From: Octopus vulgaris
Taxonomy: Eukaryota
NCBI GenBank assembly: GCA_951406725.2
Contig: OX597818.1
Location: 142,228,001-142,292,000, forward strand
Direction of reading: 5' to 3'
DNA length: 64,000 bases
Below are positions 5,591 to 61,410 of the stretch, in pieces. Made by a program: the position numbers and the translations under genes. The notes beneath the pieces were generated by a model. That model did not search any database. It was not told where the DNA came from and saw only the letters and a program-made list of their open reading frames with translations. Within the stretch, counting starts at the first letter, position 1. Each line of letters opens with the position of its first letter.

Positions 5591-5815
5591 TCATCTTTTA
5601 TTTTTTACTTGTTTCGGTCACTAGGATGTGGCCATGCTAGGGTACAACCTTGAAGAATATTAGTCAAGTAAATCAACTCCAGTACATTTGTTTGTCATTT
5701 GTATGGTGGAGTCTCCATTGGTCCTGACAACCTTTCAGTTGTTCAACTGACTGAATTCTTATATGTGGTATCGCCATGTAAGTGGCTGGATATTCCTCAG
5801 ACACACATACTTTAA

Positions 5816-6623
5816 CCTTTTAGTATTCAGATCACACTGTTAAATGTAATCCCAATTTGTTCACATTGTTTAGAATTATGAGTGCATCATCTTGTAGCTT
5901 TGAAACTTCATTGATCTGAGTGTATATTTCTTTGATCTGAGTGTATATTTCTTTGATCTGAGTGTATATTTCATTGATCTGAGTGTATATTTCATTGATC
6001 TGAGTGTATATTTCATTGATCTGAGTGTATATTTCTTTGATCTGAGTGTATATTTCTTTGATCTGAGTGTATATTTCATTGATCTGAGTGTATATTTTAT
6101 TGATCTGAGTGTATATTTTATTGATCTGAGTGTATATTTCTTTGATCTGAGTGTATATTTCTTTGATCTGAGTGTATATTTCATTGATCTGAGTGTATAT
6201 TTCTTTGATCTGAGTGTATATTTCTTTGATCTGAGTGTATATTTCATTGATCTGAGTGTATATTTCATTGATCTGAGTGTATATTTTATTGATCTGAGTG
6301 TATATTTCTTTGATCTGAGTGTATATTTCTTTGATCTGAGTGTATATTTCTTTGATCTGAGTGTATATTTCTTTGATCTGAGTGTATATTTCTTTGATCT
6401 GAGTGTATATTTCATTGATTTGAGTGTATATTTCATTGATCTGAGTGTATATTTCATTGATCTGAGTGTATATTTCATTGATCTGAGTGTATATTTCATT
6501 GATCTGAGTGTATATTTTTACAATGACATTGTAGGGTAGGTGTGAGGGGCTGGATTTGGCTGGTTTAAACATGAAACAGTCAGAATATTTTGACCAGATG
6601 TGGCCAGTTTAAATGCTAAAGAG
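5816..6623. mobile_element. piggyBac-type non-autonomous element (MITE) with an internal minisatellite
   Basis: TTAA at 5812-5815 and 6624-6627; imperfect TIRs CCTTTTAGTATT / AATGCTAAAGAG (9/12 match). Confidence 0.7.
5907..6516. repeat. 21-bp minisatellite, ~29 units (TTGATCTGAGTGTATATT followed by TCA, TCT or TTA)
   Basis: Direct reading; 29 heptads in the minus-strand ORF 5832-6572. Confidence 0.97.
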
Positions 6624-6689
6624 TTAAATATCCTAATAATTATCAGGCCAGATCCAGATTAGCATGACACAGTATGGACAAGACTGGAT

Positions 6690-7775: not shown

Positions 7776-9018
7776 TGGATTAGGATTTTGGATGCTGGCA
7801 GTTGCAATGGTAGTTGTGGTGGTTGTGTCAGTGGTTGAGGTTATGGTAGTGATCATGCACATAGTGGTGGGTGTGCTGGTGGTGTACTCTTTCATGCATG
7901 TCTTCAAATTGTTGTTGTTGTTGTTCATGTCACTGCAGATGTTGAAGGGGATAGTGTTACTGTTGTTGCTGTTGTTGTTGTTGTTGTTGCTTAATCTCAA
8001 GTTGGCAATGATCAAAGAGGTTTCACTGTATCCACGACAACATTATTTTTCTTTTTTCCGCCTTTTTATCTTTCAGTCATGAAGGAAGGCAATGCCCATG
8101 GCCCCTTTACAGAGCCCCCATCCCACTCCTGAACTAGCGGGAACAAGGAAGGTATCCTCAAACTGGAAACCTATCCCAAATGTTTGCAGTAAAGCAGACA
8201 CTGCCAAAAAGACACCCAGGGTGCCATGTGGTGGTGTTAAATCCGGTGACAGATAAAGTCTATCACCCAAGAAGGCCATGGTGGGAATTGAACTCAGAAC
8301 ACAACTCTTACAATACTACAAGGCATTCTACACTGACAGATGCTCTAACATTTTCTTTAATCCACCACCTGGAACTGGTACTTTATTTTTGCATGTTATT
8401 CATCATGATGATAATGATGATGATGTCCTACATTCTTGAAGGTTGTGATATGAGGGAAATTTGGTTTTTATTTCTAACAGGTAGCTTTTAAAGGCTCCAT
8501 AATTTGCTCAGTTGTTCTTGTTTTTTGTTGCAGTAGCAACAGTAGTAGTGGTGGTGGTGATTGTAGTGATGGTAGTAGTAGCAGTAGTAGTGGCAGCAGC
8601 AGTAGAAGTCTTAATATTAGTCTTGTCACACTAAACCAGAAGAACAACCAATTAATTGTAGTTACCTGTTCTTTGTAAAGACCACAAACTCCTTAAAAAG
8701 GGTCGGAAATATAGTATAACATTGTACTTCTTCACTCCACTGTCTTGTCTGCTTGCTATGCCATAGTAATCCAATTACTAAACAATTGAAAACTATTTGT
8801 AGTCAATTGCACCTTTTACTCTGTTAAAAATTGACTGGAAGTACAGTGCCAGAACAAAATTTTTTGTCCCTTTCTATTTTCTTAATAATGATTTCAAATT
8901 TTGGCAAAAGATCAGCAATTTTATGGGAGTGGGGTTAGTTGATTATAGGTGTTCAAATGGTAGGAGGTGGTATCAAAAGGTTCCCAAACTAATTATGTTT
9001 AATAAAAAAAATAACTTA

Positions 9019-9189
9019 GGCACAGGAGTGGTTATGTGGTAAGTAGCTTGCTTACCAACCACATGGTTCCGGGTTCAGTCTCACTGCATGGTACCTTGGG
9101 CAAGTGTCTTCTACTATAACCTCGGGCCGACCAAAGCCTTGTGAGTGGATCTGGTAGACAGAAACTGAAAGAAGCCCATCATACACATG

Positions 9190-9251
<62 letters not shown>

Positions 9252-9456
9252 TGTGTCTGTGTTTGTCCCCCAAAATCGCTTGACAACCGATGCTGGTGTC
9301 TTTACGTCGCTGTCACTTAGCGGTTCGGCAAAAGAGACCGATAGAATAAGTACCAGGTTACAAACAATAAATCCTGGGGGTCGATTTGCTCGACTAAAGG
9401 CGGTGCTCCAGCATGGCCACAGTCAAATGACTAAAACAAGTAAAAGAGTAAAAGAG
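9019..9456 (+). mobile_element. tRNA-derived SINE family A, full length, with internal (GT)n and GTAAAAGA tail
   Basis: A-box-like TGGTTATGTGGT and B-box-like GGTTCAGTC; many homologous copies in the window. Confidence 0.9.
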
Positions 9457-17020: not shown

Positions 17021-17304
17021 CTATCTAAAAAGATTGGATGGGCATGGCTGGAACACCTTTGTTCATAGGATAACCTGATTAGGATTGACTGGAGGTTAAA
17101 CAACAATACTAACATCAACAGAATAGAGAAGCTAAAACAGCACTAAATGAGGTTAAGTCCAATTTACTGGATGGATAGAATGTACACACAAAATAATCAA
17201 CATCAATTAGCCTAATTATCTATATTTCCCTCTGCATTTCGTTTTGAATTTAGAGTCTTTAATTATTTTCAGTTATATTTCTGTAAATAATAACTTCTAA
17301 CATA

Positions 17305-17720
17305 GGTGCAGGAGTGGCTGTGTGGTAAGTAGCTTACTTACCAGCCACATGGTTCCGGGTTCAGTCCCACTGCGAGGCACTTTGGGCAAGTGTCTTCTAC
17401 TATAGCCTCAGTCCGACCAATAATGCCTTGTGAGTGGATTTGGTAGATGGAAACTGAAAGAAGCCCATCATATATATATGTATGTATGTGTGTGTGTGTA
17501 TATATTTGTGTGTCTGTGTTTGTCCCCACCATCACCTTCGCTTGACAACTGATACTGGTGTGTTTACGTCCCCGTAACTTAGTGGTTCGGCAAAAAGAGA
17601 CCGATAGAATAAGTACTAGGCTTACAAAGAATAAGTCCTGGGGTCGATTTGCTCGACTGAAGGCGGTGCTCCAGCATGGCCACAGTCAAATGACTGAAAC
17701 AAGTAAAAGAGTAAAAGAGT
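17305..17720 (+). mobile_element. SINE family A, full length
   Basis: Homologous to 9019-9456 and 38859-39246. Confidence 0.9.
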
Positions 17721-29954: not shown

Positions 29955-30672
29955 CTCTAGATACATAAGCAGTTTAGTTCTTTAGAAATATGGCCACAAA
30001 AGAGATTTCTGTTTTAGCCTTAAGAACACATTAGATAATGTAGTATTTGATATACATATTAACAGGATGGCCATGGCTGGAAAAACTTCACTATAAATCT
30101 ATTCTGTCAAGCCTGATTAACACTAGAACTAAATGAGAGGAATGACAGCAACTACGAGCAGCGTATAGTTTTGCAAGTGATTCTGTATAGTTACATTAGT
30201 GTGTTTAGGCACATGTTCATATATGTGTGTATTTGTATAATGTGTATGTGTGTGCGAGAGAGTGTGTGTATGCACATGTATATGCATGTGTGTATGTATG
30301 CATGTGCACTTAATACAGATATCTAATCACTGAAACTAAACAGTGTTTACAGCTGATTAGTAGGATAAATTAGGTGATGTAAGAATAATCCCTTTTTTTT
30401 TTTTTTACTGAAGGACCAAGACCTGTTGAGCTTAAGCAGCTGAAACACAATCCACAACACTGTAATTGGCTTTACTATATGTCATTATATAATGTTAAGC
30501 CATTGTTCGTGTGGTAAGTAGCTTGCTTACCAACCACATGGTTCCGGGTTCAGTCCCACTGTGTGGCACCTTGGGCAAGTGTCTTCTTCTATAGCCTCAG
30601 GCTGACCAAAGCCTTGTGAGTAGATTTGGTAGATGGAAACTGAAAGAAGCTCATCGTATATATGTATATATG

Positions 30673-30720
<48 letters not shown>

Positions 30721-38788: not shown

Positions 38789-38834
<46 letters not shown>

Positions 38835-38858
38835 TGAATATATATATATATATATATA

Positions 38859-39246
38859 GGCGCAGGAGTGGCTGTGTGGTAAGTAGCTTGTTTACCAACC
38901 ACATGGTTCCGGGTTCAGTCCCACTGCGTGGCACCTTGGGTAAGTGTCTTCTACTATAGCCTCGGGCCGACCAAAGCCTTGTGAGTGGATTTGGTAGATG
39001 GAAACTGAAAGAAGCCCGTCGTATATATGTATGTATATATGTGTGTCTGTGTTTGTCCCCCTAGCATTGCTTGACAACCGATGCTGGTGTGTTTATGTCC
39101 CCGTTACTTAGCGGTTCGGCAAAAGAGACCGATAGAATAAGTACTGGGCTTACAAAAGAATAAGTCCCGGGGTCGAGTTGCTCGATTAAAGGCGGTGCTC
39201 CAGCATGGCCGCAGTCAAATGACTGAAACAAGTAAAAGAGTAAAGA
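38859..39246 (+). mobile_element. SINE family A, full length and CpG-rich, present only in copy 2
   Basis: GGCGCAGGAGTGGCTGTGTGGTAAG...GTAAAAGAGTAAAG inside (TA)n; absent from copy 1. Confidence 0.92.
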
Positions 39247-40290: not shown

Positions 40291-40746
40291 GATATACATA
40301 TTAGCAGGATGGCCATGGCTGGAAAAACTTCACTATAGATCTATTGTCAAGCCATACTAGAACTAAACGAGAGCAACAACAGCAACTATGAGAAGCGTAT
40401 AGTTTTGCAAGTGATTCTGTATAGTTACATTAGTGTGTTTATGCACATCTTCATATATGTGTGTATTTGTATGTGTGTATGTGTGTGTGCGAGAGAGTGT
40501 GTGTATGCACATGTATATGCATGTGTGTATGTATGCATGTGCACTTAATACAGATATCTAATCACTGAAACTAAACAGTGTTTACAGCTGATCAGTAGGA
40601 TAAATTAGGTGATGTAAGAATAATCCCTTTTTTTTTTTTTTTACTGAAGGACCAAGACCTGTCGAGCTTAAGCAGCTGAAACACAATCCACAACAATACT
40701 GCTATTGGCTTTACTATATGTCATTATATAATGTTAAGCCATTGTT

Positions 40747-41140
40747 CGTGTGGTAAGTAGCTTGCTTACCAACCACATGGTTCCGGGTTCAGTCCCACTG
40801 TGTGGCACCTTGGGCAAGTGTCTTCTACTATAGCCTCAGGCTGACCAAAGCCTTGTGAGTAGATTTGGTAGATGGAAACTGAAAGAAGCCCATCGTATAT
40901 ATATGTATATATGTATATATATGTGTGTGTGTGTGTGTGTTTGCCCCCCCCCCCCCCCATCGCTTGACAACCGATGTTGGTGTGTTTGTGTCCCCGTCAC
41001 TTAGCGGTTCAGCAAAAGAGACCGATAAAATAAGTACTAGGTTTACAAAGAATAAGTCCTGGGGTTGATTAGCTCGACTAAAGGCGGTGCTCCAGCATGA
41101 CCACAGTCAAATGACTGAAATAAGTAAAAAAGTAAAAGAG
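40747..41140 (+). mobile_element. SINE family A
   Basis: Homology to other copies; its counterpart at 30508-30739 is cut by the gap. Confidence 0.9.
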
Positions 41141-41250: not shown

Positions 41251-41462
41251 TTAATAAATAAAACATATGCATATATACATACATATATGTATGTACCTAC
41301 CTCTACATGTATATATACATGCATATATGGGTACAGGACACCAAAAAAACGTCGAACACAATGAGAAACGAAAACATAAACACAAAACCAAGGAACTGAA
41401 CATTTTTCTTAAACAACAAAAAAAATAGAGTACAGGACAAATAACACAAGGAAAAAACCCCT

Positions 41463-41540
41463 TCTTCAGTCGCCATGGTTTCATCTACTCTACGTTTTGA
41501 AGGTGGAGGCGATACGCATCTTTGATAGAAACTTTCCTTC
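41463..41540 (-). ncRNA. Rearranged (non-circularly permuted) hammerhead-like motif; G12 mutated to A
   Basis: Minus: GAAGG aaa GUUUCUAUC aaaga UGCGU A UCGCC ucca CCUUC (A)AA ACGUA gagua GAUGAAAC cau GGCGA CUGAAGA; four helices pair. Confidence 0.6.
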
Positions 41541-42435
41541 CCGCGAAAAGCAAATTAAATAAAATTTGAGATCTTTTTGCGGAGGGGTAAAAATGGTAAC
41601 AAAACCAGGAGAGTAACGACAGTACAAAATATAAGCAGTAAAAGACAGGACAAGGAGAATAACAAGACATGAAGGGCTGTTAAGCCGAACGAAAAAAAGT
41701 ATATGAACGCTATTTTTGAGAACGGCGAAGGAGCAACAGAAAATGCCATCTACACTTCAAGGAAACCGGGTCAGAAAGACATGTATACACACACACACAT
41801 GCATGTGTATGTGTGTGTGTGTGAATAAAGATGGACAGACAAACTGACCAAAAGTGCAAAGACACATACATGTACCTTGTGACATACATCCAGCAGCAGT
41901 AAGCTCACACAAGTCATGTCTAACTGAACAGATCCTTTAGATAAACGTGTTAAAAATAAAACTTATTCCATCCGTTGAATCATTGAATATTCAAATAGTG
42001 TTTGGTGGAAATATATGTAAATAGAGGCAACTATATTGGGATTTGTTTGGAGACAGTAATGTAGATTAAATTGTCATGGAGAAGGATTGAATAAATGCCT
42101 GATACATTTCGGAATAATGCTCAGTGGTATTTACTAAAAAAGAAAATGGTAATGGCGAAGTGTATTCTTTGATATTGAGATTTAGCGAAGAGAAGAGGGG
42201 AGCCGCATTGTATGTGGTGTGTGATTCAATGATTCGTATCTAGGTTTGTCTCGCATGCTAATACGGGCGTCGGCGTCAATGGAGCAGTCTGCGGAAGATT
42301 ATTTTTCCCACATAATAGGAATGATAAATCATAGACAACTTCAATGGTTTCTTCTCAATGTTCTGGTCAACTGAACAATCACCAAACTGATAACTGTAGT
42401 GATAGAAATATTAGCGATAGCAGTGTATATTTGCT

Positions 42436-49071: not shown

Positions 49072-49487
49072 TCTTTTACTCTTTTACTTGTTTCAGTCAT
49101 TTGACTGTGGCCATGCTGGAGCACCGCCTTTAGTCAAGCAAATCAACCCCAGGACTTATTCTTTGTAAGCCCAGTACTTATTCTATCAGTCTCCTTTGCC
49201 AAACCACTAAGTTACGAGGACATAAACACACCAGCATCGGTTGCCAAGTGATGTTGGGGGGACAAACACAGACACACAAACATATACACATACACACACA
49301 TACATATATATATATACATATATGTAACGGGCTTCTTTCAGTTTACATCTACCAAATCCACTCACAAGGCTTTGGTCAGCCCGAGGCAATAGTAGAAGAC
49401 ACTCGTCCAAAGCACTATGCAGTGGGACTGAACCCGGAACCATGTGGTTGGTAAGCAAGCTACTTACCACACAGCAACTCCTATGCC
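49072..49487 (-). mobile_element. SINE family A, full length
   Basis: Reverse-complement homology to 38859-39246. Confidence 0.9.
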
Positions 49488-49540
<53 letters not shown>

Positions 49541-51808: not shown

Positions 51809-52049
51809 CATTATCCTTTTTTCATCTCTGATCTCATTGTTTGTTTACATCTGATATCTTGGATATGAAACATCATAACAAAAGTCAGTGCTGGTTATAA
51901 TTTCTATAGAGTATCTGTAGAGATAACCATAACAAGTTAAGACAGTAACATGTCCAGAAGACTTACTTTAATCTACTAGTAGTGCCTAAGCATAGCCACA
52001 GCCTCTAACTAAAACTAATACTAGTATGTATGTATATATATATATATAT

Positions 52050-52210
52050 AAAATACAAAATGGGACAAGATCACAAAACATCCGGACAGCTAGGTGATGC
52101 AAAAAGGGACAACAAAACATCCAGATAGACGATACAAAGAGAATAAGGACAAGTCATTCGAAGTTTTCTTTCTTCAGTCAAGTACCAGATTATTCTCGCA
52201 ATTTTGGCTG

Positions 52211-52213
<3 letters not shown>
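52050..52213 (-). mobile_element. Truncated copy of the 53860-54150 element, carrying the 3' half of the permuted hammerhead-like motif
   Basis: Minus: UCAGCC (A)AAA UUGC...AAUCUGG u ACUUGA CUGAAGA; flanked by (TA)n. Confidence 0.7.
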
Positions 52214-52258
<45 letters not shown>

Positions 52259-53807: not shown

Positions 53808-53857
<50 letters not shown>

Positions 53858-53959
53858 TATGCAAAACATCCAGATGTTTAGGTGAAACAAAAAAGGGATA
53901 ACAAAGTATCCAGAGAGACGATACAAGGAAAACAACAATGGATCATTTGAAGTTTTCTA

Positions 53960-54032
53960 TCCTCAGTCGAGTTCCAGATTATCTTTGCAATTTCAGCTGG
54001 TTATACTCAAGATTGCTCCAATCTGGCCAGCC
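53960..54032 (-). ncRNA. Rearranged (non-circularly permuted) hammerhead-like motif with all core nucleotides present
   Basis: Minus: GGCUGG CCAGAUU gga GCAAU C UUGAGU auaa CCAGCU GAA AUUGC aaagau AAUCUGG a ACUCGA CUGAGGA. Confidence 0.65.
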
Positions 54033-54178
54033 CTAAGGAAAAATAAGCTAAAAGCATTACATTCCTTGGAAGAAAGCAGTAAATGTTACACAAAAACAAG
54101 GACGGAAAAAACCCCCAGAAATGTTACATAAATACAAATAACAGGACGTATATATAGTAGTATATAGTATATATACAT

Positions 54179-54345
54179 AGGTGCAGGAGTGGCTGTGTGG
54201 TAAGTAGCTTGCTTACCAGCCACATGGTTCCGGGTTCAGTCCCACTGCGTGGCACCTTAGGCAAGTGTCTTCTACTATAGCCTCGGGTCGACCAAAGCCT
54301 TGTGAGTGGATTTGGTAGATGGAAACTGAAAGAATCCCATCGTAT
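54179..54345 (+). mobile_element. SINE family A, 5' half
   Basis: Homology to other copies. Confidence 0.88.
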
Positions 54346-54989
54346 ATGTGTATATGTATGTGCGTGTGTGTCTGGTGATGGTGGTGGTGTTAGTGGTGGT
54401 GATGGTGGTGGTGGTAGTGATAATGATGATGATGATGATGATGGAACAATAGGGATGATGTGGTTAATGGCTGCAAAAGTTTAGGATAACCTAATAATGA
54501 TAAAATAGCGATGAAGCTGATAATGAAAAATGATGACAAGGAGACAGATATCTATATTTCTATAAAACATGAACATTTCTGAATTCGTGTATGTCTACTT
54601 GTGTGAGATTTAAACACACAATCACTGCCATCTAACTAACACTGCATCTCTTAAATAATAACTGTAATGGCTTCTAATTTTGGCACGTAATAAACACTTA
54701 GCAAGGAAGAAGAGCTCCAGGAAATTAAATTGATTCCATTAAAGGAGATGAAAGTCCCCTTGATAGGATTTCAGCTGAAGATAATAATCATCATCATTGT
54801 TTTATTATCCACTTGTAAATAAATAATAGTGTTTGTATGAACTGTGATTTTTTTTGTTTTGTTTAAAGTGTGCACACATTCAAGACAAGGAGGATACACA
54901 CACACATATATATATATATACACAAATTTGACAGACCCCTAGTTTTCATCTACCAAATTTCCTTCATGAGGCATTGGTTAACCTATGGG

Positions 54990-60900: not shown

Positions 60901-61020
60901 CATCATCGATGGAGAAGACTGCTAGTAATTAAGAAAAGATGAAGTGAATTAATAATAGCAAGCCTAACGAAGTAAGGAAGACAGAGGAATATGACTTTAT
61001 TTGACAAACATGAAAATATA

Positions 61021-61410
61021 GATGCAGGCATGACTGTGTGGTAAGAAGCTTGCTTCCCAACCACATGGTTCCAGGTTCAGTCCCACTTCATAGCACCTCG
61101 GGCAAGTGTCTTGTACTATAACCTCAGGCTGACCATAGCCTTGTGAGTGGATTTGGTAGATGGAAACTGAAAGAAGTCTATCGTATATATATATATATAT
61201 ATATATATGTGTATACATCTATGTATGTGTATGTCTTTGTGTTTGTCCCCCCCATCACCACTTGACAACCGGTGTTGGTGTGGTTACATCCCCATAACAG
61301 AGCAATTTAGCAAAAGAGACCGATAGAATAAGTACTAGGCTTTAAAACATAAGTCCAAGGGGATATTTGTTTAACCCTTCAAAGCAGTGAAACGAGTAAA
61401 AAAAATAAAA
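61021..61410 (+). mobile_element. SINE family A
   Basis: Homology to other copies. Confidence 0.85.

Follow-up and report, generated by a model that had tools for sequence, protein, structure and literature searches.

We asked whether a stretch of the Octopus vulgaris genome that holds the parts of a hammerhead ribozyme in an unfamiliar order forms a real fold, and how the catalytic core of such a ribozyme would be held together. The stretch lies on the minus strand of the window, by which we mean the whole DNA analysed here (64,000 nucleotides of contig OX597818.1). A preliminary description had noticed a permuted hammerhead at 53960-54032 and a second element at 41463..41540 with different helix sequences and the same architecture, and had taken the second as the strongest internal argument that the fold is real. 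The evidence set out below favours reading the element at 41463..41540 as a decayed copy of a predicted hammerhead with the order site-GAAA-CUGANGA, in which the link between A9 and G10.1 is replaced by a predicted four-way junction and which is embedded in a high-copy non-coding repeat that is likely of Naiad origin; intact copies would likely cut after GUA or GUC. We regard this account as probably correct.

Hammerhead parts in a split, non-circular order

Each string named in the preliminary description was found at its place on the minus strand, and the four helices (GAAGG:CCUUC, GUUUC:GAAAC, UGCGU:ACGUA and UCGCC:GGCGA) pair as claimed. The two elements of the window share no detectable sequence and keep the same strand order. 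The span of 41463..41540 proved too narrow, since the whole element extends from 41587 to 41458 and is made of the following parts.

41583..41587, minus strand: P0 5' strand CCCCU, the partner of the AGGGG directly after A9
41541..41582, minus strand: hairpin Ph, with base CCGC:GCGG and then AAAA:UUUU
41536..41540, minus strand: stem II 5' strand GAAGG, with G10.1 at 41540
41524..41532, minus strand: 5' strand of the helix linking stems I and II, GUUUC-U-AUC, GUUUCUAUC
41513..41518, minus strand: stem III 5' strand UGCGU (41518-41514) and H17, an A at 41513
Between 41513 and 41512, minus strand: predicted cut
41504..41512, minus strand: stem I 3' strand UCGCC (41512-41508) and the 4-nt linker ucca (41507-41504)
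41503-41499, minus strand: stem II 3' strand CCUUC
41498-41491, minus strand: G12-A14, where a mutation has made G12 an A at 41498, then the stem III 3' strand ACGUA, AAAACGUA
41478..41485, minus strand: linking helix 3' strand GAUGAAAC
41474-41463, minus strand: stem I 5' strand GGCGA (41474-41470) and core CUGAAGA (C3-A9, 41469-41463)
41458..41462, minus strand: P0 3' strand AGGGG, directly after A9

The GUUUC:GAAAC linking helix continues with AUC:GAU beyond one bulged U, and half of the core helices cross. The order of the parts is site-GAAA-CUGA, which does not follow the circular order of the Rfam hammerhead types I-III. The proposal of a permuted architecture held for the order of the strands, but not as a plain permutation of blocks: A9 is not followed by stem II, the motif opening with the 5' strand of stem II and closing with CUGANGA, and two more helices, P0 and Ph, bridge the gap. 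The Ph hairpin abuts both the P0 strand and stem II, with a spacer of 0 on either side.

The fold is conserved in a high-copy non-coding repeat

The element lies within a dispersed repeat, family A, whose copy in the window carries a tract of foreign subfamily alleles.

41252..41779, minus strand: family A copy, 5'-truncated, 538 nt, between (TA/CA)n microsatellites
41418..41492, minus strand: tract of subfamily A2 alleles in an otherwise A1 copy

Family A is a non-coding unit of about 780-830 nt (measured spacing 777-831 nt) with 3514 candidate copies in the assembly (2.8 Gb, 227 contigs); the best 39 non-self copies are 93-95% identical. Copies have a common 3' end that enters (TA)n and variable 5' ends. 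Longer copies are head-to-tail partial tandems, in which the sequence upstream is the 3' end of the preceding unit, and inverted pairs also occur (L070). Tandem pairs that carry two ribozymes were found at six family A loci and four family B loci. An adjacent Penelope-like open reading frame with reverse transcriptase (RT) and GIY-YIG domains, which the preliminary description had suggested looking for in longer copies, was not present in them; they consisted only of tandem units of the non-coding ~780-830 nt, and walks upstream from families A and B reached tandem copies and no open reading frames.

The core is well preserved in this family. CUGAAGA stands beside stem I both here and in 49 of the 54 family A copies. 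The majority sequence around G12 is CCTTCGAAACG, in agreement with the consensus that had been proposed for checking, and of 53 distinct copies 46 read GAAA and 2 read AAAA. Because the family majority reads GAAA, the A at G12 in this copy is explained as decay at a CpG, as had been suggested. The triplet is GUA in 25, GUC in 21 and GUU in 1 of 51 copies (GUH in 47/51). The U16.1-A15.1 pair is present in all 30 copies aligned for pairing, and G10.1-C11.1 is G-C in 27 of these 30; the latter pair is G-C or G.U in 18/20 copies of families B and E and is also found in families C and D.

Under the six-helix model, 96.9% of 1080 cells pair across the 30 family A copies, against 40.6-49.4% when the partners are slid, and the helices are thus preserved among copies. 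Compensation is seen between subfamilies, with a C-G to U-A change in Ph in 11/30 copies and a G-C to A-U change in stem III in 8/30. The Ph change sits at CpG sites, which mutate fast on both sides, and each compensatory change, here and in families B and E, is one inherited event. We are highly confident that the fold has been conserved by selection.

The copy in the window is a mosaic. It has A1 alleles at 41581-41513, A2 alleles at 41492, 41457, 41456 and 41418, and A1 alleles again from 41387, so that the 5' edge of the tract falls between 41513 and 41492, a 21-nt interval containing the predicted cut. The pattern occurs in 0 of the other 53 family A copies (n = 1) and could stem from gene conversion or a template switch. 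The mosaic of A1 and A2 also explains the G.U pair that this copy has in stem III; each subfamily has a Watson-Crick pair there.

The design recurs in unrelated repeat families

Other repeats are interspersed in the window. A dispersed repeat of 250-400 nt occurs at 8979-9365, 17300-17627, 30454-30709, 38819-39156, 40693-41049, 49256-49499, 54140-54395 and 60981-61347, and we take its resemblance to be to a tRNA-derived SINE. At 5781-6664 there is a tandem array of about 40 units of 21 nt that is open in several frames. Two further features carry, in whole or in part, the design of the family A element.

53820..54150, minus strand: family B copy, likewise of the six-helix design; its core is intact and H17 lies at 54011
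52041-52214, minus strand: partial family B/E copy, 3' part only

The design recurs with other helix sequences in four further repeat families of this genome, B, C, D and E. By BLAST, families A, B, C and D have no sequence in common beyond microsatellites, and E is a relative of B. Among 20 distinct B/E copies, 96.4% of cells pair, and B and E differ by compensatory changes in stem I (G-C to A-U) and in the linking helix (U-A to C-G), each in 5/20 copies. Copies of family E (L314-L333) are 99-100% identical and have an intact ribozyme; this identity points to recent transposition, and therefore to a partner that was lately active. In a 1.2 Mb sample of the genome, BLAST with ribozyme segments found 22 places (6 of family A, 11 of B/E, 5 of C and none of D, with tandem units counted once), which would scale to roughly 50,000 copies in the whole genome, mostly decayed.

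Family C also forms short tandem arrays (L211-L214, L218) of a 114-125-nt piece that covers the ribozyme's 5' half as far as GAAAC, and in these arrays the last unit alone is complete.

A predicted four-way junction between A9 and G10.1

If A9 ran directly into stem II, the strand after A9 should pair with the strand before G12. In families B, C and E this arrangement allows only 0-2 contiguous pairs, compared with 5-6 when the 5' strand is used. In family A, the contiguous option is a weak helix of 4 bp after one extra A (G-C, G.U, G.U, G-C), and one family D copy has 5 weak contiguous pairs after a 2-nt insert.

P0 and Ph helices within 1 nt of A9 and 10.1 and of comparable strength were found in at most 0.17% of 3000 random, non-repetitive anchor pairs for A1, A2, two B copies and the C copy L224; family A helped to define the junction rule, and its own score is thus not independent. 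The background was 2.6% for the family C copy L215, in which a different register was picked, and 6.9% for family D, while the value for family E (27%) comes from a copy truncated inside the hairpin and is uninformative on the junction. In full-length family E, P0 is 14 bp long. A cruder score based on counts gave a background of 6% and missed the family B copy of the window.

When stem III was forced and stems I and II and the core were kept open, ViennaRNA added P0, Ph and the linking helix without prompting in 6 of the 7 sequences, the exception being family D. Summed helix energies favour the six-helix model by 6-18 kcal/mol with pseudoknot costs ignored. Unconstrained nested folding preferred other structures in 7 of 7 sequences; in family A the competing fold is a rod that sequesters GAAA, and in A1 the stem II strand pairs with the 3' flank. 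P0 and Ph are predicted to close the gap between A9 and G10.1 as a four-way junction.

In L005 and other A1 copies the flank after CUGAAGA could form some 14 bp with the strands of stem II and of the linking helix, and this pairing is a possible off-switch.

Pairings in a decayed AT-rich repeat might be due to chance, and two results would fit this explanation: nested folding of the 78-nt stretch was not favoured over shuffled sequences (z = +0.79), and Rfam returned no hammerhead, neither among the 150 of 207 matches listed for the window nor among the 4 matches for an intact copy. The z-score is unremarkable, as expected for helices that cross. A four-helix descriptor matched twice in the 64-kb window, at this element (score 20) and at 54011 (score 25), but it had been derived from these two elements and their own matches are no test. 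In 1.2 Mb of evenly sampled genome it gave 3 matches with scores of 23, 23 and 18, of which the last (L264, without the junction) was treated as chance; the controls gave 0 matches in 3 x 0.6 Mb of shuffled sequence, 5 in 10 x 1.2 Mb of shuffled sequence and 1 in the reversed 1.2 Mb. There were no matches in 30 GIY-YIG loci, and none in the 1.2 Mb genome sample when the descriptor carried a U3-A8 core. With GAAA required strictly, 20 x 1.2 Mb of shuffled sequence (24 Mb) yielded 5 matches, every one with a score of 18 or less. This ceiling, the compensatory changes in family A and in B/E, and a strand order common to five families and to published Naiads make chance pairing extremely improbable. 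Family A might otherwise be an ordinary type-SGC hammerhead as defined by Eckert et al. 2023 (PMC10085705), with stem II formed by the GGGG that follows CUGAAGA and the extra A together with CUUC, the matches of the 5' GAAGG and of CCCCU being incidental. The four pairs noted above would permit this, and an extra nucleotide between A9 and 10.1 is described as common in Penelope hammerheads in the available text of PMC4209133. However, GAAGG:CCUUC and CCCCU:AGGGG are wholly Watson-Crick, the added hairpin Ph covaries, and families B, C and E leave hardly any contiguous pairs after A9. An uninterrupted type-SGC core in family A is accordingly improbable, and the split six-helix fold is the reading that we carry forward.

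Relation to Naiad and other Penelope-like elements

Family D represents a decayed Naiad's 3' end, and matches the 3' end of the published Naiad_Ovul/Obim sequences, in the portion accessible, nearly letter for letter. A Naiad-type motif pattern had 375 exact matches in this genome and 0 in the control. Several of 20 loci found by the start of the 3' UTR have decayed RT frames upstream with GIPMG/YIDD/YNKT motifs, and six of them (L236, L237, L239, L243, L250, L253) combine a decayed RT upstream with the ribozyme motif ~800-1100 nt downstream. Of eight family D loci selected with the ribozyme pattern, none had RT motifs in the 5.5 kb upstream, and the decayed Naiad RT pieces had no match in the protein database or Pfam. 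An intact Naiad frame was not found among the 150 of 1118 candidates scored, the longest of 124 matches being 292 aa.

Naiads were stated to lack a canonical hammerhead in the accessible text of Craig et al. 2021 (PMC8557442), some being flagged as HHR_core or HHR_half_core only. We read passages of the file of 54 published Naiad consensus sequences by eye around four spellings of CUGANGA; line breaks in the source file hide some occurrences, most families could be given neither form in these passages, and the counts are lower bounds. The split six-helix form is present in at least 9 of the 54 families, namely the near-identical trio Amil, Aacu and Anas, Obim, Ovul and four others, and the Bfor consensus shows it in part. 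A complete type CSG, with A9 joined to G10.1, was recognised in the same way in at least 6 consensus sequences in the nematode stretch of the file. These six comprise Naiad-1, -2 and -3_Nbra (assigned by file position) and three more.

Family A has Penelope-like traits: (TA)n targets, variable 5' truncation with a fixed 3' end, partial tandems of the pLTR kind and inverted copies. No Penelope open reading frame with an N-terminal GIY-YIG and a C-terminal RT was found in the window or upstream of family A copies, and comparison of family A with family D, the Naiad 3' end, gave microsatellite matches only. We infer a Naiad origin for family A from the common design and insertion habits, sequence similarity being absent. 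On this sequence evidence the repeat probably belongs to the non-autonomous Penelope-like elements and derives from Naiad; that it is mobilised by a Penelope-like element is very likely, and descent from Naiad 3' ends is somewhat less certain but still likely.

The genome also contains a young Neptune-like Penelope element with many open frames of 781 aa that combine RT with GIY-YIG at the C-terminus. Pieces of it lie near a repeat copy at 5 of 155 loci (tblastn), in inconsistent arrangements. The Neptune-like element (L167, L172 and others of L161-L190) has a minimal hammerhead in canonical order with a palindromic stem III at 18 of 30 loci. Its core reads UUGAUAA instead of CUGANGA, with a U3-A8 pair, and is missed by searches based on CUGANGA.

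Predicted activity and mechanism

In the accessible account of hammerhead chemistry in PMC11300833, G12 is the general base, the 2'-OH of G8 the acid, and a sheared A9.G12 pair lies beside G10.1-C11.1. In natural hammerheads the A9/10.1 link can accommodate one more nucleotide (PMC3705267 and the available text of PMC4209133). Since G12, the general base, is an A in the copy at 41463..41540, this copy is predicted to be inactive.

For intact copies we propose the following course. P0 would stack after the sheared A9.G12 pair and Ph on stem II, and through this stacking the junction would hold A9 and G10.1 together in the absence of a backbone link, and the RNA ends would lie at P0's far end. 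Seen so, the fold would be a circular permutation of the cycle to which SGC and CSG belong, opened at a new place, and a single cycle would be opened in three ways, as SGC, as CSG and as the split form. Folding would be completed late, because P0 closes only once CUGANGA has been made, and flanking helices could switch the ribozyme off. Intact copies would cut after H17 (GUA or GUC; here between 41513 and 41512). More tentatively, cleavage may trim head-to-tail or read-through transcripts to RNA of unit length, by analogy with proposals for Penelope hammerheads in the accessible text of PMC4209133, and we give a role in processing tandem RNA slightly better than even chances. A Penelope-type RT/GIY-YIG protein could copy the unit-length RNA into (TA)n sites.

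Four RNA-like contig sets show a dip in depth where the cut is predicted, but the dip recurred in a large, probably genomic run and was rejected as an assembly effect. Among the family A 5' ends, counted by eye in 100 of 166 matches listed, 9 lie no more than 3 nt from the cut and another 9 lie 4-29 nt upstream, a count biased by the position of the cut in TAT microhomology with (TA)n and by the first letter of the search pattern, which excluded most full-length A1 copies. Among the family B 5' ends (100 of 836 matches listed), 1 is at the cut and ~8 are elsewhere. Copies do not clearly start at the cut, and the counts of 5' ends are not taken as support.

A selected six-helix fold may no longer cut, or may need a protein to do so, serving as a recognition element for the RT or being held off by competing helices. 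The competing nested folds in all seven sequences, the recurrence of the depth dip in a probably genomic run and the lack of a cluster of family B truncations at the cut among the matches listed are all compatible with this, as is the poor cleavage in vitro of minimal Penelope hammerheads described in the available text of PMC4209133. It does not readily account for the constancy of CUGANGA, GAAA, UH, U16.1-A15.1 and G10.1-C11.1 across unrelated families and, in the published sequences accessible, across phyla, while all the helices have changed, nor for H17, where the majority forms have A or C but no G, in keeping with the needs of catalysis. A fold that has lost cleavage, or depends on protein for it, is thus unlikely, and intact copies of the repeat are expected, with good probability, to cleave. 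A different doubt concerns only the partner: the ribozyme may be as described, with the non-coding families moved by the young Neptune-like Penelope rather than by a Naiad. The many 781-aa frames of the former, set against the lack of an intact Naiad frame among the 150 of 1118 candidates scored, and the recent partner activity implied by family E would suit this possibility. Against it, the Neptune-like element has its own minimal hammerhead of canonical order and no sequence in common with families A, B, C and E, and a divergent Naiad could be missed when 150 of 1118 candidates are scored. Mobilisation by the Neptune-like element is a real but less probable option, and a Naiad-type partner for the repeat is preferred.

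Significance and comparison with known hammerheads

In the open literature, no publication was found that describes a hammerhead of non-circular order, or one with a split core, in either a retrotransposon or the genome of an animal; the search covered open sources, most subscription journals and bioRxiv supplements lying outside it. 'Type-SGC' appeared in Eckert et al. 2023 alone, whose text and supplement, in the parts accessible, make no mention of Octopus. In their accessible text, a 2026 paper (PMC13725137) cites for alternative permutations only Eckert 2023 and two others, and a 2026 retrozyme preprint (bioRxiv 10.64898/2026.07.22.740005) treats type I only. We lean towards the view that Naiads across animals carry an unseen class of hammerheads of the S-G-C cycle, those of nematodes being intact CSG and those of cnidarians, molluscs and others having a seventh topology that is opened at A9/G10.1 and rebuilt by a four-way junction able to act as a folding switch, with tens of thousands of copies in this genome. 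Such a class would break the rule of an uninterruptible CUGANGA block, which is the basis of the six-permutation hammerhead scheme, and would place non-circular hammerheads, hitherto known from environmental sequence only, in animal genomes at high copy. It would also overturn the statement that Naiads lack hammerheads, making the ribozyme again a near-universal feature of Penelope elements with a testable role in transposition, and would offer a helical insertion point inside the core as a natural site for switchable ribozymes.

According to the accessible text of Eckert et al. 2023 (PMC10085705), type SGC (HRIMA-1 and variants) was validated in vitro and found only in metatranscriptomes, type CSG is represented by 5 sequences from soil metagenomes, and neither comes from a known organism. 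In that scheme block C, made of stem I, CUGANGA and the stem II strand, is unbreakable and admits at most 1-2 inserted nt. The design described here resembles type SGC in its S-G-C order, a linker of 3-5 nt between stems I and II, a helix tying both stems together and the presence of all core nucleotides. It differs in that block C is opened after A9 in families A-E and bridged by P0 and Ph, and, unlike the SGC and CSG finds, it resides in an animal genome at high copy. As far as its sequence tells, it would work like a type-SGC hammerhead, yet it lacks the unbroken block of that type, in which the stem II strand lies 0-2 nt from A9. A further relative is the PK hammerhead of Zhan et al. 2024 (PMC11300833), which, in the text available, also has a helix beyond the core, a distant strand completing its stem II region. 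There, however, A9 runs into G10.1, the order is circular and the pseudoknot is made to the loop of helix IV; neither that link nor that order is found in the octopus element.

As a mobile element, family A is like the Naiads of the accessible text of PMC8557442 in targeting (TA)n, in being truncated at the 5' end and in forming partial tandems and inverted copies. Unlike a Naiad, it has no open reading frame and no detectable similarity to the Naiad 3' UTR in the available sequences; the design and the insertion habits alone are held in common. It also resembles the non-LTR retrozymes and the type-I hammerheads of Penelope pLTRs (accessible parts of PMC4209133 and bioRxiv 10.64898/2026.07.22.740005) as a non-coding, tandem-forming, hammerhead-bearing derivative of Penelope-like elements. 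Where Penelope pLTR hammerheads have an extra nucleotide at A9/10.1, a whole junction is found here. Retrozymes, as described in the same accessible texts, are tandem units each with a type I hammerhead, and in these as in the Penelope pLTR hammerheads a minimal palindromic stem III works as a dimer. The tandems of family A do carry two ribozymes, but not of type I: here a full stem III of 4-7 bp would form within one molecule, the order is non-circular and the junction stands at A9/10.1.
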